Counted from the first letter of the stretch, positions 26,467 through 51,606 are shown. The stretch is DNA of 64,000 nt from Acidobacteriota bacterium (GCA_029263395.1 JAJCXO010000162.1:8798-72797), one strand, 5' to 3'. Notes: generated by a model from the sequence alone, not told the origin. Translations and numbers: made by a program.

Positions 26467-26680
26467 AGCTCTATAACCTCATCGCCACGAGGGTTTTGAA
26501 ACGGCGCATCCGTTGGGCACTCGATGCGTTCCTTCCATACGCCGGGCCTTAGCCGGCAGCCCTCCATTACGATTTGCTCAGGGTTTACTCAGGCCAACCA
26601 AGTGCCACCCTGGGTATCATGAACTGGGTTTGGGTGCGGGCAGCACCGCGAGTAGGAAGTTCTGATGGAGGGAGTCTCCA

Positions 26681-27274
26681 TTGACAGCAAACGGCACCGA
26701 CATCACAGATCTGTTGCTTGCTTGGCGAGGTGGCGACGCCGACGCGCTGGCCGAGCTGATGCCGGTTACCTATCGCAGCTTGAAGGCGGTGGCGGCGCGA
26801 CTGCTGCGCAACGAACGTGGCGGCCAAGCACTGGAAACCACCGGGCTAGTGCACGAAGTCTACCTTCGTCTGGCGGATCTGGAGCGCGTCAGCTGGCAGG
26901 ATCGAGCCCACTTCTATGCCTTGAGCGCTAGGTTGATGCGCCAGATTCTGGTGGACCTCGCCCGCGCTCGGTCGCGCCTCAAGCGCGGCGCCAACCAGGT
27001 CGTGATCTCGGTCGACGAGTTGGAGCCCAAGTCCGAAACCACCCGTCCTCCCGATCTGTTGGCACTCGACGACGCGCTGCGCGATCTGACCAAGATCAAT
27101 GCCGAGTACGCTCGGGTCGTAGAGCTTCGTTTCTTTGGCGGCCTGGGCCGCAACGAAATCGCCGAAGTGCTGGGCATCTCGAGCGCTACGGTCTCGCGAC
27201 GGTGGCGCGCAGCCCGCGCTTGGTTGTCTACTTATCTCGCAGAAGGGCCCGGCCATGCCATCTCTCGGTTTTAG
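26681..27274 (+). CDS. ECF sigma factor of the Ser/Thr-kinase-associated type (ECF43 / TIGR02999 'Sig-70_X6'-like)
   Basis: Region 2 (LLLAWRGGDADALAELMPVTY...LVHEVYLRL) and region 4 (VVELRFFGGLGRNEIAEVLGISSATVSRRWRAARAWL). TTG start with GGAGGG 8 nt upstream. A membrane Ser/Thr kinase follows within ~500 bp. Confidence 0.85.
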   Translation: MTANGTDITDLLLAWRGGDADALAELMPVTYRSLKAVAARLLRNERGGQALETTGLVHEVYLRLADLERVSWQDRAHFYALSARLMRQILVDLARARSRLKRGANQVVISVDELEPKSETTRPPDLLALDDALRDLTKINAEYARVVELRFFGGLGRNEIAEVLGISSATVSRRWRAARAWLSTYLAEGPGHAISRF

Positions 27275-33782: not shown

Positions 33783-34349
33783 TCACTCGGAGGTCATTTC
33801 CCGGTAGAGCCAGGCCTTGGCCAACCGCCAGCGGCGTTTGACGGTGGCCGGCGAGCAGCCGAGCACCTCCGCCGTTTCCTCGCCGGTGAGCCCACCAAAG
33901 AAGCGCACCTCGACGATCCTCGCCTGAGTTGAGTCCAGTTCTTTGAGGCGACTCAGGGCCCGATCGAGCGCCAACAACTGATCGGAGCGCTCAAAGGCCA
34001 AATCGACAACCGCCGACAGCGGGATCTTCTCACCGCTGTTCCGCTTAGCAGACCCATGGCGGCGAGCATGATCCACCAAAATCCGCCGGATCATCTTGGC
34101 GGCAATACCAAAAAAGTGCGAACGGTTCTGCCATTGGACATGCTTCTGGTCGACCAAACGCACATACGCTTCGTGGACCAAGGCGGTCGGCTGCAGGGTG
34201 TGATTCTGACGCTCGATCGACAGATAACCCGCGGCTATTTTACGCAGCTCGGCGTAGACCAGGGGCATCAGCTCCTCGCCCGCCTGTGCATCGCCTCCTC
34301 GCCAGGCCTCGAGGAGACAGGTTACGTCCTGCCCACCTGGGGAACTCAT
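33783..34349 (-). CDS. ECF sigma factor (ECF43 / TIGR02999-like), paralogue of the 26681 gene
   Basis: 'DVTCLLEAWRGGDAQAGEELMPLVYAELRK...LVHEAYVRL...VEVRFFGGLTGEETAEVLGCSPATVKRRWRLAKAWL'. The start is chosen at the internal ATG (34349) by homology. The longest ORF starts at 34634 but would overlap the upstream gene. Confidence 0.8.
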   Translation of the reverse strand: MSSPGGQDVTCLLEAWRGGDAQAGEELMPLVYAELRKIAAGYLSIERQNHTLQPTALVHEAYVRLVDQKHVQWQNRSHFFGIAAKMIRRILVDHARRHGSAKRNSGEKIPLSAVVDLAFERSDQLLALDRALSRLKELDSTQARIVEVRFFGGLTGEETAEVLGCSPATVKRRWRLAKAWLYREMTSE

Positions 34350-34420
34350 CAAAAAACAGCTTATCAGGAGCTGAGACGCGAGCAGCGAGCTCAGCCTCAG
34401 TCCACCTCCATCTCCCTGGT

Positions 34421-34455
34421 CCCTACAGCACGAGGCCTTCCCTACAGCACGAAGC
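34421..34455. repeat. 13-bp direct repeat x2 (CCCTACAGCACGARG) between the Cys-rich ORF and the sigma gene
   Basis: Read directly. The repeats lie 19 bp apart. Confidence 0.5.
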
Positions 34456-34536
34456 TTTTCTAAAACACCAAGGTGGGGACCAGGTCTTGGCCCGACCCGA
34501 TCCCCCTGACTCTCTCTGGTCTGTTCAAGCTGTGGG

Positions 34537-34938
34537 CTAGGCGCAGATGCAGACCTTGGGGCCCCAGCCGTAGCAGCTGTTGAAATGCCGCGAACACACG
34601 AAATTAACCGCCGGTTCACCAGGACAGATACCAATACAGTCTGTATGGGTGTTGCACAGGTCGCAGGTGATCGTCACGCTGGTTCTCGGGGTATCGAGCA
34701 CGGTCCTGAAAATTGGCAGGTCGAGCTCCGATAGAGCGGCCATCACAGGTGTCACCGATGCGAAGGACCCAGCAGTCTCGGTCGCGCTGGCTTCAGAAAC
34801 CGCACTGGCCTCTGCCGGCGCCGCCTCCGCTTGTGCGGCCACTGATTCGGCCACGTCATTGCTGCCAGGGTCAGCCAGAACTGGGGTCAGAGTCGCAACT
34901 AGGCCGAGGGTGAGGAGCAAGATCAGCTTCTTCGTCAT
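34537..34938 (-). CDS. Small secreted cysteine-rich protein (signal peptide, Ala/Glu/Ser-rich linker, C-terminal 45-aa module with 10 Cys)
   Basis: MTKKLILLLTLGLVATLTPVLA ... ITCDLCNTHTDCIGICPGEPAVNFVCSRHFNSCYGWGPKVCICA. GGAGAA Shine-Dalgarno 7 nt upstream. It lies immediately upstream of the ECF-sigma/kinase pair. Confidence 0.5.
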   Translation of the reverse strand: MTKKLILLLTLGLVATLTPVLADPGSNDVAESVAAQAEAAPAEASAVSEASATETAGSFASVTPVMAALSELDLPIFRTVLDTPRTSVTITCDLCNTHTDCIGICPGEPAVNFVCSRHFNSCYGWGPKVCICA

Positions 34939-42648: not shown

Positions 42649-43119
42649 TTGTCTGGCCTCTCGTCCAATGCCGCCGCCCAGCCCTCGAGCATAGACGTTT
42701 GTCACAGTGCACAGGTAATCGAGGGCAATTCATCGTGGCGAGACCTGGGTTTTGATGCTTTCGCAACCCGTTACTTCAGAGTGAACCTGACCGAACCCGG
42801 CCAGTTGATGATTGACGTCACACCTCTCGACACAACCCTTGTGGAACCCAAACTCGAGTTTTATGGCCGATCCTGCGGCGACTTCGACTCTAGCTTTGAA
42901 ACACAAAAAAGTCTTGAAATACGAAAGGCCGTCACGCTGCGTTATGCGTTGACGGGTTTGATCCTTTCAGTTGATCAGCCAGGAGACTTCTTCTTTCGGG
43001 TAGCAGCACAAAATCGTGCGGAACCTTTGATGGGATTTGTTCTCCATAGCCGTTTTGTTGCTGAGCCTGCCTTCTCGTTCAAAGACATCGTGGAATCTGA
43101 ACAAGACCCAGACCTATAA
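42649..43119 (+). CDS. Hypothetical protein, possibly PPC (pre-peptidase C-terminal)-like beta-sandwich
   Basis: 'YFRVNLTEPGQLMIDVTPLDTTLVEPKLEFYGRSCGD' loosely resembles PPC-domain motifs. No signal peptide. Weak. Confidence 0.3.
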   Translation: MSGLSSNAAAQPSSIDVCHSAQVIEGNSSWRDLGFDAFATRYFRVNLTEPGQLMIDVTPLDTTLVEPKLEFYGRSCGDFDSSFETQKSLEIRKAVTLRYALTGLILSVDQPGDFFFRVAAQNRAEPLMGFVLHSRFVAEPAFSFKDIVESEQDPDL

Positions 43120-43224: not shown

Positions 43225-45741
43225 CTAGCGAAGCTCACTTCTATCACGTAGGACCGGCGGCTTTCCCCAAGCCTCGTAGAGTTCAACCAGACGTTGCCGA
43301 GCATCGCGGGTGTAGACCGAGCTTGGCCCTTTTTGCTCTAGCAACGCCCGGTGACTGGTGATCAACAACGGTTCGGCTTCTACAAATTGACTTTGGGCAG
43401 TCAGTACCGCCCCCAACACACTGCGGGTATCGGCGAGTCGCCAATAGTCTTCCGGTCGGGTGGCCTGTAGGCTGGTCAACGCTTGCTGAGCCAGCTTGCT
43501 GGCGGCGTCTGGCTGTCCGAGGTCGAGCAACAGGTTAGCCAGGTTACGACGCGAGACCGCTACATCGTGATGCGCTGCTCCCAACTCTCGCAGTCGAATC
43601 TCCAACACTTTTCGAAACAGTGTTTCCGACTCGGAGGTGTCACCCAAACGATGTAAGCAGACGGCCAGATTATTGAGGCTCTTGGCCACCTCGAGATGGT
43701 CTTCACCGAAAATCTGACGCCGTTGATCCGCCACCTCTCTGAAGAGGTCCGCAGCTTTTTGATACGCACCGCGGTGATAACTCAGACGTGCCACATGCTG
43801 CAGGCTCTGCACCAGATCCGCGGCATTCGGTTCGAGCTTGGTACGGCGGATCTCGAGGGCCTGGTGAAACAGGGTTGCCGCTTCTTCGGTCCGGCCTTGG
43901 CTTTCGAGCAGTGTCCCAAGGTTGCTGAGCCCACGCGCCACCTGTAGATCGTCTTGGCCCACGAGCCGATACTTCATCTCCAAGGACTCGCGGTAAAGCG
44001 TCTCGGCTTCGGCTAGCTCGCCGAGATCTTGCAACAGCCCGGCGTAGTTGTTCAACGCCAGGGCCAGCCGGCGATCGTCTCGACCGTCGAAGTGACGGCG
44101 TAGGTTGTCGAGGGCGGTGCGCATCAAGAGTTGGGCTTCCGGGATCTCGTCTTGCCAACGATGCATATAGCCGAGGTTGAACATGGTCTCAGCCACCCGT
44201 GGATCGTCACCGCCGTAGAGCCGGCGCTGGATCTCCAACGACTCGTCAATCAGCGATTCGGCAATCTCCAACGATCCGAGGGCGCCATAGGTCCGACCCA
44301 GGGTCTCCAATACCCGGGCCTGCAACTCCGGCTCATCACCGAGCGACTTGGCGAGCCGTTCCTTAGCCTGATCGATCACACGCCGCGGATTGGGCTTCTG
44401 GCGCGGATCCGGCGACTGCAAGGTTTCTTCCAGGAAAGCCACCACGGTTTCGACCCGCTGGCGCTCGCTCGAGGTTTGGAGCGTCGAACGCGCCAAACCG
44501 ACTCCAAGGGCGAGCAGAGCGGCGGCCACCAGGATTTCTACCTTGCGGCGCCAAACAAATTTAGTGAAGGGATACCACAGCGTGCCGTGTCGTGCAGCCA
44601 CCGGAAGACCGTCGAGATGGCGTTGGATCTCTGCGGCCAACTCGGCGGCGGAGCCGTAACGCTCGGCCGGGTCACGGCAGAGCGTCTTGAGCACGATGGC
44701 ATCGAGATCACCTTGTAGCTGCCGTTTCAATCCTCGGGGATCACACCCCCGGGCTCGGCTCGAGACCTCCGGCGCCAGCTCCGGTCGCCCGGCAATTGCG
44801 GTCCCCACGACCACCGAGCTGGCACGGCGGGGCGGCTCACCTGAGGCCGGCCTCAGGCTAGGTGCGGTGGCGAGGTCGAGATCCCAGGGCAGGCGTCCGG
44901 TCAACAGACTGTAGAGCAACACTCCGAGGGAATAGAGATCACTCGCGGTGGTGATGGCTTCCCCCATCAGCTGCTCGGGGCTGGCGTAGCTGAGAGTCAT
45001 CGGCGCTAGCCCGGTGGTGGTCTCGGGCGCCGACTCGGTAGCGAGTAGCTTGGCAACCCCAAAGTCGAGCAGCTTGGGTATCGCATCCTCGGTCACCAGG
45101 ATGTTCGAGGGTTTGATGTCGCGATGCACGACTAGGTTTAGGTGCGCAAACGCCACCGCCTCGCAGACCTTACTAAACAGCTCGAGCCGTTGGCGGATCG
45201 AATATGCTCGGGTGTCGCAATAGTGATCGATGCGCTCACCTTCAACGTGCTCCATCACGAAGTATGGGCGTCCATCGTCGGTGGTGCCGCCATCGAGCAG
45301 CCGGGCGATGAAAGGGTGTTCGAGCTGGGCCAGGATCCGACGCTCGTGCACAAAACGGCGTGCAATCTCGTCGCTGCCGTGGCCATGGATCAGCTTGATG
45401 GCCACCTGCGCTTGGTAGTCGTCCTCGCGGACAGCAAGGTAGACCTGTCCCATGCCACCGCTGCCGATTTGGCGTTCGAGACGATAGGGGCCAAGTCGAC
45501 GACCAGCGTCCTGGCCCGCCGTCGGTTCGGGCACGCGGAGCTTCAGACATGGCTCTTCGATAAATTCACCAATCTCTGATTCGAGAGCGAGAAACGCCTC
45601 GACTTCCTCACGCAAGGACGGATCGTTGCCACAACGCGCGGCGAGCAGCCTTTCACGCTCGGCGGATGGCAAGATCAGGGCTTCGGCGAGGATCGCCTGA
45701 ATCTGGCTCCAACGGTCGCTCGACCAACCCGTCGCGGCCAC
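43225..45741 (-). CDS. Membrane Ser/Thr protein kinase with extracytoplasmic C-terminal TPR domain
   Basis: VAIKLI, HRDIKPSNIL, DFGVAK, ASPEQ. TM helix (VEILVAAALLALGVGLA). TPR repeats. Confidence 0.9.
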   Translation of the reverse strand: MAATGWSSDRWSQIQAILAEALILPSAERERLLAARCGNDPSLREEVEAFLALESEIGEFIEEPCLKLRVPEPTAGQDAGRRLGPYRLERQIGSGGMGQVYLAVREDDYQAQVAIKLIHGHGSDEIARRFVHERRILAQLEHPFIARLLDGGTTDDGRPYFVMEHVEGERIDHYCDTRAYSIRQRLELFSKVCEAVAFAHLNLVVHRDIKPSNILVTEDAIPKLLDFGVAKLLATESAPETTTGLAPMTLSYASPEQLMGEAITTASDLYSLGVLLYSLLTGRLPWDLDLATAPSLRPASGEPPRRASSVVVGTAIAGRPELAPEVSSRARGCDPRGLKRQLQGDLDAIVLKTLCRDPAERYGSAAELAAEIQRHLDGLPVAARHGTLWYPFTKFVWRRKVEILVAAALLALGVGLARSTLQTSSERQRVETVVAFLEETLQSPDPRQKPNPRRVIDQAKERLAKSLGDEPELQARVLETLGRTYGALGSLEIAESLIDESLEIQRRLYGGDDPRVAETMFNLGYMHRWQDEIPEAQLLMRTALDNLRRHFDGRDDRRLALALNNYAGLLQDLGELAEAETLYRESLEMKYRLVGQDDLQVARGLSNLGTLLESQGRTEEAATLFHQALEIRRTKLEPNAADLVQSLQHVARLSYHRGAYQKAADLFREVADQRRQIFGEDHLEVAKSLNNLAVCLHRLGDTSESETLFRKVLEIRLRELGAAHHDVAVSRRNLANLLLDLGQPDAASKLAQQALTSLQATRPEDYWRLADTRSVLGAVLTAQSQFVEAEPLLITSHRALLEQKGPSSVYTRDARQRLVELYEAWGKPPVLRDRSELR

Positions 45742-45754
45742 CTACATCTCCCGA

Positions 45755-46729
45755 TCAGTGCACGTCGCGACGCGACTCGGAAACATCGTCGCGAGGCGAC
45801 TCGGAAGCACCCTCGCGGCGCATCTCATAGAAGAGGAACCGCCGTGCCATCGCAAAGTCTCGTTTGACCGTCATCGTGGAGACGTCGAGTAAGTCGGCAA
45901 TCTCCTCATGGGTCAAGCCACCAAAAAAGCGCATCTCGACCACCTCCGACTGACGTGGCGCGATCTGCCGGAGACACTCCAGGGCATCTTGCAACGCGAT
46001 CAGATCAAGCGACGTTTCATTGGCAATCTCGAGGTCGGGTCCCAGGGAGACCCGGACGACACCGCCACCGCGGCCATCTTCCGGCATCTTGGAAATCACC
46101 GTCAGTGGCTCGCTGCTGGTGACGTTGCCAAAGGTAATGGTGGCCCCGGAGGTCCGGCTCGGCCAGGGTTCGCGGACCGCATACCGCAGATAATCGGCGT
46201 CCCACTCGTGGCCCCGGGTGGCATGATCAGCACCGTTCTGACCCCTACCGTGGCGTCCAATACCGTGCTCTCCCGAAAGAGACGTTGCGATACACGCAGC
46301 GCCGGTGACGATGCTACGCATCCAGCCGGTAGAGCCAAGCCCGGTCGAAACGATGATCCCGCTGGACGATTGGTTCTCGGCATGTTCGCCGATACGGATT
46401 TCATACCGTGCCGAAGTGTGGCTGCGAGGACCGATAAACAGATCATTGACGCCGTAGAGCACTTCACCGGTATTCAAGGTCACCTGCGCCATCGTCACAT
46501 GGCGTATCGGGCGTCGACGCTCGAAGGTTTCGAGCACTACCGACTCGAGGTGTCCCACCTCGAACGGCAGCAGTACCCCCTCCCACCGTTCGACGTCGGG
46601 ATTGACGCCGATCAGCCATTGTCCGTCCAAGTACTTCAATACGTTCGCCACCAAACCATCCTGCCCGAGGGCAACCACCGTATCGCTGGCCCCGAACATG
46701 AAGTTCGGCAAGAAGGCACGATTCACCAC
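45755..46729 (-). CDS. Fusion protein: N-terminally truncated NAD-kinase-like domain + C-terminal sigma-70 region-4 HTH
   Basis: N-terminal ~230 aa aligns by eye to NadK motifs. GGDG becomes 'LGQDGLV'. NE/D becomes 'VNDLFI'. 'DGLIISTPTGSTAYS' becomes 'SGIIVSTGLGSTGWMRS'. The C-terminal ~70 aa is ECF region 4 (VEMRFFGGLTHEEIADLLDVSTMTVKRDFAMARRFL). GTG start. An in-frame stop 22 codons upstream limits any N-terminal extension. It occupies the position that the ECF sigma holds in the other two kinase loci. Confidence 0.55.
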   Translation of the reverse strand: MVNRAFLPNFMFGASDTVVALGQDGLVANVLKYLDGQWLIGVNPDVERWEGVLLPFEVGHLESVVLETFERRRPIRHVTMAQVTLNTGEVLYGVNDLFIGPRSHTSARYEIRIGEHAENQSSSGIIVSTGLGSTGWMRSIVTGAACIATSLSGEHGIGRHGRGQNGADHATRGHEWDADYLRYAVREPWPSRTSGATITFGNVTSSEPLTVISKMPEDGRGGGVVRVSLGPDLEIANETSLDLIALQDALECLRQIAPRQSEVVEMRFFGGLTHEEIADLLDVSTMTVKRDFAMARRFLFYEMRREGASESPRDDVSESRRDVH

Positions 46730-46949
46730 TTGCAGGCCGGGAGATGTAGAGCTGTGAGTTATCGTCCCCGAGCTGCGGCGCTGTAGCGTAATTCATGAGA
46801 TGTTTTCCTTGTGCAAAGAGACCTGCCGGCTGGCCGTTCGCCGGCTGGCCGATCGCGGCCAACAAGCAACGCAGGGAAACCCCGTGCCCCCCTGTTCACC
46901 CCATCACGCGGAATCGGAACCGCAAAGGGAACATCCCCAGGCAATTTTT

Positions 46950-48945
46950 TTATCGCGGTGGGTTGCCCAACGAGCTCAACTCGGCGATGAGCTGATCGAG
47001 CCACGGCTCGACCACGCCGCGGGCACGACGACGGTCACGGATCAACCGCAGGTTGTCAGCCGTCGAAACGCCCTGCCAGGGCTCCGCCATCGTCACCAGC
47101 GCTTCGGCACAAGCGCTCGATGCCGCCGGACCGTCACCGCCGAGCACCGCCAGCTCGAGCGCCGTGGCATGCGCCCAATAGCCGGGTCGCTCAGCCCTCA
47201 GCTGCTGTTTGACCGCAAACTGCACCAAAGGCAAAAGCTCACGCTGGCGTTCCAGGGATTCCGCGGCACCCTTGATGTCGAGCAGGGTGAGCGCGTTGAT
47301 GCCGGCATAACCGTTGCGCCAATCGATCTCAAAACCTTGGATGTAGTTGGCGATTGCCTTGTCGAGGTAGCCGGTGGCCAGGATCGTCCGATCCTGCTGC
47401 TCGGCTTGGCGCCACAGATCTTTGTACGCTCGCCCCATCATGCCGCAGGTTTCGTGACTCGGCCCCACCTCTTGCAACAGCTGGTCGAGCATCCAGATCG
47501 CTTGCTGATGTTCACCTTGCCGATTGAGGGCAAAGGCGAGTTGCTGGCGAGCTGCCGGCAACTGACGCTGCCCCCGCGGTAAACGATCGTAGATCCGCAC
47601 CATGTCGTCCCAACTCTCGACCGCACGATAGGCCAGGAATAGCTCCATCGCGAGGTCGCCATCAACATCCTCGAGCGGGCCCATCTGGGTTTCGATGCCT
47701 TGTAGCTCAATGGCACTGCCGCGACCGCGGGCGCTCGTCAGCTCGCGGATCCACTCGGCCGGCGACCGACCACCCAGCGTCTCAGAGCCCTGCCACAGCA
47801 CGCCGTCCTCGAGCCGCATGAAGAGCATCGGCAAGCTCCAATCCGGCAGATCCGATGCCGTTAGATGGAGCTTTTGGCGGGCCTCGTTGACCGCGGCATC
47901 CACCCGTCCCCACAAGGCGAGATGGCGATAGAGATGCTCCGTAAAACACCCGGCAGCGTCGACAGGAAGGGCGCCAGAAGCCGCAATCGCCGCCGGTACC
48001 CCGCGCCGAACCAGTTGTGGCGCCAGACCGGAGAAGGGGCTGTCCCCGGCGGACGCCCCGCCGTGACAAGCCATCAGGGTGATCAGCCGCAGTGAAAGAT
48101 CTCCCTCGACGATCTCCGCCACCATCCGTTCGGGGACAAGCTCGACCTCACCCGTCGTCGTTTCCAACACCAAATGAGCACAACCCTCGGCGTCGATACC
48201 GCCATGACCCACCAGGTGCAGCACATGAAACCCGCCTTCCAACAGGCGATCACGAATCCGCACGACCGTCGCCGGGACCTCTAACATCTCGAACGACAGA
48301 TGAGGTGTCAGCGGCTCTAGGCTCGTGGTCAACGTTTTGTCGTATCGCCCCAGCATCCATTGCGGCGAGGCCGTAGGCTTCGAGATTCCGCGGCGCCGCA
48401 ACCACGACCAAAACCCGTGGTCGCTCGACCACCGCCGTCCCAGGTGCCAGCGGTACGCTCAGATATCGACTGAGGGTCACAGCGTGAGATCGCCCCAGAG
48501 ACCGGCCCTCGCGGGGATCGCGCAGCAGCTCCCACCGCAGTTGATGCAGCGGTTGCGGTGCCACCGGTGACAGATGCAAACGAACCCGCAGTACCCGCCC
48601 GCCGTTGCGCGCCAAGGTCAGCGCCTCTCGGTAGCCAGCGAGCAACTCGTCACCCTCGCGGAACAGCCCTTGGAAAAGCTGCGTACCGTAGGCGTCGAGA
48701 TCGAGGGCAACCCGCCTCAGCTCGCGGCGCAGACTCTCGCCGAGGTCCGGACGACCGAGGAATTCGCGTCCCGCCACCGACAACATGGCGTGATCGTCAG
48801 CGGTGAGGAGAATCTCACAGTCCAACGCCCGCCGGGAAGCCCGCCCCATGTCTCGAGAGCCGGGGTCACGCTGTGGCACAGTACGGTCTGGCACAGCACG
48901 GTCTGACACAGCACGGTCTGACACGGGATCGTGCGATCGGGTCAT
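46950..48945 (-). CDS. CHAT-domain (caspase-fold) protease with C-terminal helical repeat domain; reading frame apparently interrupted near 48250-48400
   Basis: The upstream part (ORF 48250..48945) carries CHAT N-terminal features (LHQLRWELLRD, RPRVLVVVAAP). The downstream part (ORF 46950..48401, a different frame) carries the His/Cys dyad contexts (VLHLVGHGG; LITLMACHGG). A ~270-aa alpha-helical C-terminal domain follows. The two ORFs overlap by ~150 nt. That is consistent with a frameshift or sequencing error in a single gene. Confidence 0.6.
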
Positions 48946-50969
48946 GGTTGTTTTGCCACCGAGAGCTTCCCCCCGTCGACGGGCAAACGCGCCGCTGGAT
49001 CCCCCAACACGATTGTGCTGCTGGCCTGATGATGCCTCAGCCAGGCATCGACCAGGGCATGGTCCGAAATCGGCGCACCAAAGCTCGCCTTGCGACGCAG
49101 GTCTTCAAGCTCGAGAGCCGCCGACGCCTGCTGGCCGATAAGCTCCCGCAGTGCATGCCCCACTGGCTGACCGTCGAGCAACGCGGTCAGGATCACTCGC
49201 CACCACCGGCGCTGATCCGACGCCAAGCTGGCATTAAACGTGGCAGCTCGGTCCACCATGCCAACAACCGCGAGCGCGCTGCCGCCGGGATGCGAAAGTA
49301 AGCGCTGAGGTAAACCCGCAACGAAGGCTTCGCCGTGATCTTGCGCCGGAGTCCCCGCTCCGAATGAGGATACGAAGAGCATCATCGAGTTCGCGAGGTT
49401 TGTGTCGGCGGGGACATCCCGAGCGGACAGAACGTGGTGCGGCTCAACCGGCCCGTTGCCAGGCCAGTCCTGGCAGATCAACGCCCCTTGACTCACCACC
49501 TGATCGTCATGCTCGGTCCGCCAACCGAGACCGTGGGCCGCCGCCAGCATCACCGTGGGTGCCGCGTTCGCTTCGGATAGGACCTCGATCAACCGGGAGC
49601 GGGTTGCCGCCGAACCCAGCAGGCGGACCACGTCGACCGTGCCCTGCTCCACCAACTCCGCAGCGAGGGGCTCGACGAACCCATCAACGTCCCGAGAGTC
49701 CTGCTCTCCACGACCGCGGGGCGCACGATCGCGCGGCGCAAAGAAAACTGCCCGCGGTTCAACCCATGACTCGTTCCGGACCTCTGACGCGATCACACTT
49801 TCGGCATACCGTCGATAGTCCTGGGGCTGCTCGAGGCTGATCCGTCCGACCGCGTACTGAACTTGCAGCGCACGTTGCAGCTCGAACGAAACTCGACGAG
49901 GCGACCCGACCAGCAGCAAAAAATACGGCACCTTCTCGGGTATCAGGCGATCACCGGCCGCCACCCCGTGGCGCGCCAGCCACTCCCGCCAATCTTCGCC
50001 CTCGCGGACTTCGAGGACTGCCACCGGCCCGCCGGCTTGGCGCCGATGTTCGATCAGTGGTGCAAGCGCTGCCCGCACCTCCGCGGGCTCCTCCGCATGG
50101 ACAACCAACGCCCAACCGGCTCGTTCGATCTCGACGCCTGAGATCCCGTCCGGCAGACTCAATGTTGGTTGAGTGCGCGCCCGATGCATCCGACGCAAAA
50201 GCTCGACGAGAAACCGATCCTGGACCTCGGCTTGGATCGTCCTAGCCGCCTCGGCCAGCAAAAAAGCGTTTATCAAGCGATCGCCGGTGACCGCGTCGAG
50301 TCCAGACCAGTGGATCGCGGTCTCGGTATCCAACACCGTGCTCTCCGACACCTCGCCAGCCTTACCCGTCTTGATGCTCTCGGTGCCAGCCGTCTCGGCA
50401 GTGGTCTCGGCGGTGCCAGCCGTCTCGGTGCCAGCCGTCTCGGCCTCTCCCCCGGCAATCGCCACCAAGGCATCTCGCGCTTCGGTAAGCTCTCGTACCA
50501 AATCCTCGTAAACACATTCACTCTCGATCTCATTTTCACTAGTGCTCAGATGGAGAGCATCCGCAGAGATCGCTTGCCGCTTGCGGTGAACACGATCCAG
50601 GTCCTCCGTTGCCAGTTGGCCGGTGCGTCGACGAGGATCGAAAACTGCTGCTGGCAGCCGAGCGCCGATCCGGCAGCGCACCGTGAGGACACCGCCATCC
50701 TGGCCTGAGATCGCGACATCGGCACTACCAACTTCGCGGTTGAGATCACCGGCAACCACTCGTAAAGATCCCTCCCCTTCGGGATCCGACTCAATGACGA
50801 CCCACTGAAGCCCGCAGTCGGCGGTCTGCTCAAAAACATACAGATCGCCAGGAACGGGTGCCGCTGCCTGCCGCTGTCCCTCTTCGAGAGCAACCCGAGT
50901 CTCTGTCAGGCGTTGGGCGGCATCTGCCGCACGCCGCCGAGCCTGCTCACGGAAGTCTGAGTTGTTCAC
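48942..50969 (-). CDS. Large protein with C-terminal gingipain/clostripain (C25/C11)-like caspase-fold domain; catalytic Cys position appears to be Ser
   Basis: 'KVPYFLLLVGSPRRV' leading strand. 'TVMLAAAHGLGW' is a His-Gly context. 'MMLFVSSFGAGT' sits where caspase-fold enzymes carry the nucleophilic Cys. The N-terminal ~165-aa domain is unassigned. A Thr/Ala/Glu low-complexity linker (ETAGTETAGTAETTAETAGTE) separates the two. The stop overlaps the CHAT gene start by 4 nt. Confidence 0.4.
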   Translation of the reverse strand: MNNSDFREQARRRAADAAQRLTETRVALEEGQRQAAAPVPGDLYVFEQTADCGLQWVVIESDPEGEGSLRVVAGDLNREVGSADVAISGQDGGVLTVRCRIGARLPAAVFDPRRRTGQLATEDLDRVHRKRQAISADALHLSTSENEIESECVYEDLVRELTEARDALVAIAGGEAETAGTETAGTAETTAETAGTESIKTGKAGEVSESTVLDTETAIHWSGLDAVTGDRLINAFLLAEAARTIQAEVQDRFLVELLRRMHRARTQPTLSLPDGISGVEIERAGWALVVHAEEPAEVRAALAPLIEHRRQAGGPVAVLEVREGEDWREWLARHGVAAGDRLIPEKVPYFLLLVGSPRRVSFELQRALQVQYAVGRISLEQPQDYRRYAESVIASEVRNESWVEPRAVFFAPRDRAPRGRGEQDSRDVDGFVEPLAAELVEQGTVDVVRLLGSAATRSRLIEVLSEANAAPTVMLAAAHGLGWRTEHDDQVVSQGALICQDWPGNGPVEPHHVLSARDVPADTNLANSMMLFVSSFGAGTPAQDHGEAFVAGLPQRLLSHPGGSALAVVGMVDRAATFNASLASDQRRWWRVILTALLDGQPVGHALRELIGQQASAALELEDLRRKASFGAPISDHALVDAWLRHHQASSTIVLGDPAARLPVDGGKLSVAKQP

Positions 50970-51475
50970 GATGATGGCTCCTCACCTGCTGCACTCGCCT
51001 CCCCTGATCCTCTAACCGCTGTGTCCTCGTCTTGGCGGTTTAGGCTGTGGGAACTCTCCCTTTCAGCCGTTCCGCCGAGGGTTGCCCGGCAACGCTCGAC
51101 CCAGCGTCGTAGGATGCTATCGAGCTCCCGGAAACGGTCGCGAGGAATCCCCAACAGCTTGGACAGCTGGCGTTGCCCAAGGCGTTGCCCTTCGTCCGTC
51201 GCCACTGTCGTTTTAAGATACTCCCACAACAGCTGAAGGTACCGTCGAGTGCGCTCCTTGGCACGGTGCTGATCGACACAACGCAACAGCTCGCCATAAG
51301 CCTGGCGCGTTTCGTAGTCGACCGCCGGAGCCACCATCGGGACGATCACCAGGTCTCCATCATCCGAGGCATCGTCAACAGCTGTCCCGCCACCATCCAC
51401 TACTCTTCGAGCACCTCCTCCGACGTGCTCCAGCTCGCCCCGACAAAACCGAGTCGCGACGCTGGCAGATGCCAC
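50966..51475 (-). CDS. Hypothetical protein with a possible HTH (…LGQRQLSKLLGIPRDRFRELDSILRRW…)
   Basis: The stop overlaps the start of the 675-aa gene by 4 nt. The true start may be the internal Met at 51337. Confidence 0.3.
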   Translation of the reverse strand: MASASVATRFCRGELEHVGGGARRVVDGGGTAVDDASDDGDLVIVPMVAPAVDYETRQAYGELLRCVDQHRAKERTRRYLQLLWEYLKTTVATDEGQRLGQRQLSKLLGIPRDRFRELDSILRRWVERCRATLGGTAERESSHSLNRQDEDTAVRGSGEASAAGEEPSS

Positions 51476-51606
51476 AACGAGCGCCGCTTCATTTCGGCCA
51501 CCAGAGCACCTCGAAACGACTTCCAGAAGCGCTCGTGAAGCTCGGTCGAAGGCTCGCGCCCCGACGCCAGGCAGCGCACATATTCAGTGAAGACCAGCTC
51601 AGCCAT
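51400..51606 (-). CDS. Small ORF (68 aa) of unknown function; uncertain
   Basis: It begins 22 nt after the mmsA stop. It overlaps the longest form of the next ORF. It may be real or an artefact. Confidence 0.2.
   Translation of the reverse strand: MAELVFTEYVRCLASGREPSTELHERFWKSFRGALVAEMKRRSLWHLPASRLGFVGASWSTSEEVLEE

Follow-up and report, generated by a model that had tools for sequence, protein, structure and literature searches.

Protease-released transcription switches have been described at CRISPR loci. In the CalpL-CalpT-CalpS system, the middle protein CalpT binds a sigma factor through its MazF-like domain and carries a docking domain, and the protease cuts its unstructured, Ala-rich linker (bioRxiv 10.1101/2024.05.08.593097). 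In the type III-E system Craspase, the TPR-CHAT protease Csx29 cleaves Csx30, which holds RpoE, a sigma factor of the extracytoplasmic function (ECF) class. A TPR-CHAT domain is also borne by DdvA, the anti-sigma factor of the Myxococcus xanthus ECF sigma system DdvS/DdvA (PMC11506125), and TPR-S is a described sensor-type domain, with caspase among its partners according to a later paper re-analysing the data of Burroughs & Aravind 2020. Here we describe a locus in an Acidobacteriota bacterium (GCA_029263395.1, contig JAJCXO010000162.1, 8798-72797) that lies at positions 46950-51606, minus strand, of the 64,000-nt stretch analysed (hereafter the window) and centers on a 675-aa gingipain-like protein encoded beside a CHAT protease. 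An earlier note, made from the sequence alone, had read it as an operon of paired active and inactive caspase-fold proteins with no match to a described system; the observation was partly confirmed by our analysis, and the interpretation partly supported.

A cassette conserved in Acidobacteriota has most likely survived in the window only as a degraded relic, and the operon that had been claimed is here interrupted by a frameshift in the CHAT gene and an internal deletion in the upstream gene, which we call up. In relatives the intact order is up, then a translationally coupled gene for a MazF-fold module, a linker, and a dead gingipain domain, and then CHAT-TPR-S, with genes for an ECF sigma factor and a TPR kinase adjacent. 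We establish for this family its folds, a clade-wide nucleophile loss, its gene couplings, and its domain fusions, and we propose, at somewhat less than even confidence, that the locus is a decayed protease-gated regulator switch, a CRISPR-independent cousin of the protease-released sigma switches. Four open reading frames (ORFs) lie on the minus strand from 51606 to 46950, and the features of the cassette are as follows, with confidence in the linker given as the predicted local distance difference test score (pLDDT) and the helix-turn-helix segment abbreviated HTH.

51400..51606, minus strand: 5' remnant of up, residues 1-68 (tblastn with intact orthologs, 68-72% identity)
50966..51403, minus strand: 3' remnant of up, residues ~237-374, including the C-terminal HTH (profile positions 239-355)
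48942-50969, minus strand: 675-aa ORF, intact, with a GTG start
50436..50969, minus strand: N-module of the 675-aa protein, aa 1-178 (helix, beta-barrel, second helix)
50325..50447, minus strand: Thr/Ala/Glu-rich linker, aa 175-215, predicted disordered (pLDDT <50)
48942..50324, minus strand: gingipain-like (C25-like) two-subdomain caspase-fold domain, predicted catalytically dead
46950..48945, minus strand: CHAT-TPR-S protease gene, frameshifted (CHAT His at 48204-48206, Cys at 48066-48068)
48945..48250, minus strand: N-terminal ORF of the CHAT gene, 231 aa
48401..46950, minus strand: 483-aa ORF of the CHAT gene, with the His/Cys motifs and a helical tail

The statement that the unit could not be matched to a described system was too strong, since analogues exist in CalpL-CalpT-CalpS and in Craspase with Csx30 and RpoE. 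The closest described system is CalpL-CalpT-CalpS, whose three-part plan recurs in the cassette: a protease fused to a sensor, a middle protein of two domains, and, encoded alongside, a regulator that is of sigma type there and putatively so here. The middle protein in both combines a MazF-like domain, an unstructured linker, and a second domain, which in CalpT is C-terminal and docks to the protease. The parts themselves differ: the protease is Lon there and CHAT here, the sensor is SAVED there and TPR-S here, the docking domain is DUF2080 there and a dead gingipain here, and the regulator here is a 350-aa protein without a sequence match to the sigma-70 families. No similarity to a PDB chain was found here, in a sequence comparison from which CalpT itself was left out. 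Among the called neighbor genes of the related loci, Pfam gave no match to SAVED, Lon, or Cas families; no search aimed at CRISPR arrays was made. Craspase offers a further parallel, from which the cassette differs in having no gRAMP/Cas7-11 and no RNA guide, in bearing C-terminal repeats of the TPR-S/MAP3K_TRAF_bd type rather than the N-terminal TPR of Csx29, and in a putative substrate that is itself a caspase-fold pseudo-enzyme. DdvA, in contrast, spans the membrane, its anti-sigma domain being helical and zinc-binding and its CHAT domain periplasmic, with the His-Cys dyad intact, whereas the protein described here is soluble and joins a MazF-fold partner-binding module to a dead gingipain-like caspase-fold domain. 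The window CHAT protein resembles the TPR-S-centered conflict systems (Burroughs & Aravind 2020, J Bacteriol 202:e00365-20) in bearing TPR-S/MAP3K_TRAF_bd at high significance but differs from them in lacking a nearby gene for TIR, SLOG, patatin, or calcineurin. The cassette would be an undescribed variant of the protease-gated switch type.

The 675-aa ORF of the earlier reading is present, at 48942-50969, and a 74.6-kb NCBI contig encodes an identical protein. The AlphaFold model, for which 60 homologs were used (mean pLDDT 85), has the two-subdomain caspase-hemoglobinase fold of Peptidase C25, and the model and a 60-member alignment confirm the predicted caspase fold, the intact His, and the Ser where Cys was expected: His479 (49533-49535) is kept, and Ser535 (49365-49367) stands in a column where each of the 43 short homologs has Cys. 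The His-Cys dyad of Peptidase C25 is consequently incomplete, its equivalence to that of the gingipains being based on fold and strand position, with no residue-level superposition. In the alignment, the short members (~480 aa) carry His in 'HGLG' and Cys in 'FACFGAGTP' without exception (43/43), while the 17 N-extended members have Ser (11), Ala (4), or Pro (2) at the Cys column, one of them having lost the His also, and the second His of the active family (GHVDRAW) is replaced in this clade by Met or Leu. Loss of the Cys matches presence of the N-module exactly, all 17 members with the module lacking the Cys and all 43 without the module retaining it. Because the loss of the nucleophile is common to the whole clade, a pseudo-enzyme is favored over a serine variant, and the alignment argues for the 675-aa protein being a catalytically dead gingipain-type pseudo-protease. 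Another cysteine, Cys499 (49473-49475 in the window), in the motif QGALxCQDW, is invariant in 60/60 aligned members, active and dead.

The protein differs from the gingipains RgpB and Kgp (family C25) in more than the replacement of the catalytic Cys by Ser. Sequence identity is only 13-15%, and Pfam PF01364 scores 19.2 bits, under its gathering cut-off of 23. The protein is apparently cytoplasmic: its first 38 residues form a helix that is charged and has no hydrophobic stretch, as judged without a signal-peptide predictor, and no signal peptide, propeptide, Ig-like domain, or type IX secretion system C-terminal domain is visible. The profile of the C25-like family matched nothing significantly among PDB sequences, and neither PADLOC models nor NCBIfam matched the 675-aa protein. 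An hhalign comparison of the family with CHAT was nonsignificant, yet the His and Cys columns of the family fell on the His and Cys of CHAT. More than 327 proteins belong to the family, and at least 494 matches to it were found in genomes of Chloroflexota, Cyanobacteria, Planctomycetota, Myxococcota, Actinomycetota, and Acidobacteriota; the scan of the genome collection recovered the short active family only and not the N-extended clade.

The Thr/Ala/Glu linker reported earlier is present at aa 175-215 and is a candidate protease-accessible site. It is much shorter in orthologs, and in the window genome it has been lengthened by a 15-nt tandem repeat (4.4 copies, 50378-50443; TRF). This repeat and a second 15-nt tandem repeat at 48877-48924, which encodes the SDRAV repeats that open the CHAT ORF, are both specific to the window. 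The N-terminal domain, which had been left unassigned, we now read as a MazF-fold module: a long helix is followed by a beta-barrel of the MazF/CcdB fold (aa ~40-135) and a second helix, an arrangement that has the fold of the MazF/PemK/CcdB superfamily. The module has no Pfam match at E<=1.

A full HMMER scan with residues 1-178 against 1.84 billion representatives returned at least 522 clusters, and architectures were read in the best 145 of the 522. At least 80 of these 145 join the N-module to a membrane helix and a ~110-aa tail, and a module with a membrane helix and then an outer tail behind it has the topology of membrane anti-sigma factors. In 20 clusters, up (350 aa) is fused in front of the N-module as a single polypeptide; in 2, the module is fused to ECF sigma factors, one of them a complete PF07638 domain. 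The module stands alone in about 20 clusters and occurs with the C25-like domain in a few. Two further clusters combine it with FHA and EAL domains (P0231 and P0239, EAL being a cyclic di-GMP phosphodiesterase), which suggests that the module can be wired to second-messenger turnover. A stand-alone 187-aa copy lies between the pseudo-gingipain and CHAT genes of locus L089 (10117-10680, plus strand). The window contains no second copy of up, of the N-module, or of the C25-like domain.

What had been taken for two separate small ORFs (68 and 169 aa) upstream of the 675-aa gene are really the two ends of a single 342-377-aa gene, up, in different frames. The 5' remnant covers profile positions 2-67 of 358 and ends at a TAG just past the deletion junction; the match to intact relatives spans 51606..51403 for this remnant and 51403..50999 for the 3' one. 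Profile positions 68-238 are missing in the window, ~500 bp having been lost between the remnants. The stop codon of up and the GTG with which the 675-aa gene starts overlap (GTGA), and this is the gene overlap that is conserved: up lies immediately upstream of the N-extended gene in 7 of 9 sampled loci, mostly with a 4-nt overlap, and downstream of it in an eighth. At L091, too, up comes just before an N-module gene, one of the membrane type. Of the conserved partners of the pseudo-protease, the tightest is up, not CHAT. The predicted model of up resembles the sigma-2 and sigma-4 domains of sigma factors. No Sigma70_r2 or Sigma70_r4 match was found in Pfam or NCBIfam, only weak generic HTH matches; its profile gave nothing significant against PDB sequences, and hhalign against ECF sigma factors was nonsignificant.

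The CHAT gene, previously taken as a single ORF, is split in the window into the 231-aa and 483-aa ORFs, which are in different frames. Its span, 48945..46950, is 1996 nt, which is not divisible by 3, and within the A4 run that occupies 48335-48338 a +1 frameshift interrupts the coding sequence; with one A dropped from this run, a 664-aa protein results that aligns without a gap across the junction and is 59-61% identical to orthologs. The NCBI annotation of the same contig lists only a 445-aa CHAT fragment. We considered an assembly artefact as the source of the frameshift, and this was ruled out by the independent Logan assembly, in which a 468-aa CHAT product with the start MLGRYDKT... has the same shifted frame, so that the lesion is no artefact of a single assembly. 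The His and Cys contexts are intact, as had been stated (HLVGHG and LMACHG), and PF12770 scores 53.7 bits on the 483-aa fragment against a cut-off of 24. The C-terminal helical domain of ~270 aa described earlier is likewise present, but it is a known one, TPR-S (PF20308; E 3e-25, 89.3 bits against a cut-off of 27.6, spanning about 47280-47612) or MAP3K_TRAF_bd (PF13281; E 8e-33, 114.4 bits against 24.1), and both matches are equally found in the CHAT orthologs. PADLOC models gave only a weak SAVED_CHAT match on the CHAT protein.

The ATGA overlap between the stop of the 675-aa gene and the ATG of CHAT, on which their linkage had been based, is present but specific to the window; at this site, relatives carry either a spacer of 1.2 kb or one more gene. 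The spacer of L001 and L090 holds no N-module copy, and its ORFs have no Pfam match. These ORFs, of ~400 aa on the opposite strand (L001 9775-10977, minus; L090 3170-4366, minus), fill the spacer and are 62% identical. Contigs L084/L092 (GCA_039029035.1) and L093 break at the spacer site, which may point to a repeat or variable segment.

Pairing of the 675-aa protein with CHAT nevertheless holds outside the window, as it recurs at L001, L090, and L089, on two further shared contigs, and in one metagenome-assembled genome where the locus is divided between contigs L084 and L092. Full-length CHAT-TPR-S orthologs are rare, eight having been found, and every one on an informative contig adjoins a pseudo-gingipain cassette. 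The active short family also keeps company with CHAT: 43 of 63 of its loci have a CHAT ORF within 10 kb, and 33 have one within two genes. In protein P0357 (1015 aa), an active C25-like domain with both its His and its Cys is joined to a CHAT domain that has 40% identity to that of the window. Another protein, P0345 (1084 aa), unites a closely related CHAT domain (52% identity) with a protein kinase and TPRs; this protein and the up homolog P0136 are each on a 17295-bp contig. Other neighbors of the active family (~480 aa; loci L004-L083) include CHAT-nSTAND1, nSTAND1-WD40, and CHAT-SIR2 proteins, a papain-like peptidase, PLD, an LCAT-like lipase, and lipoxygenase, and such neighborhoods have been described for conflict systems of multicellular bacteria (PMC7159879). 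The islands of the active family occur in Chloroflexota, Nostocales, Planctomycetota, Myxococcota, and Acidobacteriota, and Pfam matches none of several recurrent neighbors, which form clusters of ~266, ~450, and ~350 aa.

In the switch that we propose, the MazF-fold N-module would hold the sigma-like regulator up. The dead gingipain domain, probably derived from an active partner of CHAT proteases, would have taken the place of the membrane anchor and outer sensor carried by most N-module proteins and would serve as a cytoplasmic docking or receiver domain for the neighboring caspase-fold protease. Binding of a ligand by TPR-S would lead CHAT to cut the exposed linker or otherwise to engage the pseudo-protease, and the freed regulator would change transcription. 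More tentatively still, we suggest that up and the N-module may represent a large, undescribed family of sigma/anti-sigma-like pairs in Acidobacteriota, mostly membrane anchored and with at least 522 N-module clusters, of which one branch has acquired a dead gingipain receiver under a TPR-S-gated CHAT protease.

Several observations weigh against the proposed switch. All of its binding and cleavage steps are ones that we infer. A PDB profile search and direct comparison of hidden Markov models found no similarity of the N-module sequence to MazF or to any PDB chain. CHAT-TPR-S was not found within 8 kb at L085 and L088, and at L002 a different TPR-CHAT, on the other strand, stands in its stead. 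No TIR or cyclase gene lies near the cassette. An HTH gene upstream of a MazF-fold gene is also the canonical order of a toxin-antitoxin pair.

That order, together with the 4-nt overlap typical of type II pairs and the existence of stand-alone N-module proteins, is what speaks for a toxin-antitoxin or abortive infection system in which the N-module would be a latent RNase or other toxin, up its antitoxin and autoregulator, and the toxin would be freed when CHAT cuts the linker. We consider this improbable. Most N-module proteins have a membrane anchor and an outer tail, and others are joined to the putative antitoxin or to ECF sigma factors, neither of which is seen in MazF toxins; the sequence resembles neither MazF nor PemK; the position of Escherichia coli MazF Arg29 is occupied by Gln, Leu, or Glu, in a secondary-structure register set by eye and not superposed; and a two-domain antitoxin of 350 aa would be atypical. 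Less probable again is that the 675-aa protein is an active protease that has switched from Cys to Ser535 as its nucleophile, even though it keeps His479, the rest of the fold, and many residues invariant in the family, and 11 of the 17 clade members have Ser in the nucleophile column. To our knowledge, no clan CD peptidase has a Ser nucleophile; orthologs have Pro (two) or Ala (four) in the same column, one lacks the His too, and the second His of the active family is Met or Leu in the clade.

A stronger competitor, if still an unlikely one, is the caspase/pseudo-caspase regulation to which the earlier note had likened the pair. The dead gingipain would then act as an inhibitor, activator, or decoy substrate of CHAT or of active C25-like paralogs, as cFLIP does with caspase-8, and the N-module would be a mere adaptor. 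The two caspase-fold genes do adjoin, the C25-like family is generally found near CHAT genes and is fused to CHAT in P0357, and for bacterial conflict systems, inactive caspase-like domains have been described that act as modules of a dominant-negative or peptide-binding kind (PMC7159879). The pseudo-protease beside CHAT fits such a reading, but the N-module and its partner are left out of it: neither the perfect match between loss of the Cys and gain of the N-module nor the fact that up, rather than CHAT, is the most constant partner is explained, and two loci have no CHAT gene within 8 kb of the pseudo-protease. The protease-gated switch remains our preferred reading of the family.

The genes flanking the cassette bear on how far the window copy has decayed.

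46710..46796, minus strand: remnant (29 residues) of a ~156-aa gene conserved in relatives, where it comes after CHAT-TPR-S (tblastn aa 1-29, 45-55% identity)
45755..46729, minus strand: fusion ORF, residues 69-279 of a 312-aa protein joined to region 4 of a PF07638-type ECF sigma factor
43225..45741, minus strand: Ser/Thr kinase with TPR repeats, intact (Pkinase E 3e-43, TPR_12 E 1e-53)
42649..43119, plus strand: truncated 156-aa copy of a conserved 280-380-aa protein, convergent to the kinase (tblastn aa ~32-152)

The ~156-aa gene is intact at L001, L090, L092, and L093. The gene described earlier as a NadK-like/sigma-4 fusion appears to be a deletion product, as its parts, the 312-aa protein and the ECF sigma factor, are separate genes at L001 and L092; the L001 312-aa protein is 64% identical to the fusion ORF over aa 69-279, and the ORF holds ECF profile positions 98-189 of 192, its sigma-2 half being missing. 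The NAD-kinase similarity of the 312-aa protein is itself weak (NCBIfam E ~3e-4, far under the cut-off). The TPR Ser/Thr kinase is the usual partner of the ECF sigma gene, and the two stand beside the cassette with the convergent 280-380-aa gene in 6 of 9 related loci. The window copy of the convergent gene lacks the conserved C-terminal part of the protein. One relative has a weak PPC-domain match. Two apparently intact PF07638-type ECF sigma genes elsewhere in the window (26666-27271, plus strand; 33786-34673, minus strand) are presumably the partners of its other two TPR kinases.

Relative to L001, L092, and L090, the window cassette has an out-of-frame internal deletion in up, a frameshift in the CHAT gene, a 156-aa gene cut down to 29 codons, a 312-aa protein reduced to residues 69-279 and fused to what is left of the ECF sigma gene (its region-4 half), and a convergent gene truncated at its 3' end, and it has lost the 1.2-kb spacer before CHAT and a Band-7 gene; only the pseudo-gingipain and kinase genes are full length. 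The larger deletions may reflect misassembly. Given the out-of-frame deletion in up, the frameshift in CHAT, and the truncation or fusion of four neighboring genes, the switch is very probably nonfunctional in the window genome. In annotation, the small HTH ORFs and the NadK/sigma-4 fusion should not be read as separate genes.

The interest of the locus rests in its family and less in the window copy. If the proposed reading is true, the family would be a CRISPR-independent counterpart of CalpL-CalpT-CalpS in which an executioner-type caspase-fold protease has been turned into a receiver domain. Protease-released transcription switches would then not be limited to CRISPR loci but would be a more general bacterial design, one that can be rebuilt from other proteases (CHAT for Lon), other sensors (TPR-S for SAVED), and other docking domains. 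The recruitment of caspase-fold enzymes as dead receivers, an idea put forward for conflict systems of multicellular bacteria without experimental test, would gain a concrete bacterial case, and two unannotated families, the 350-aa HTH protein and the MazF-fold module, would be given a role.

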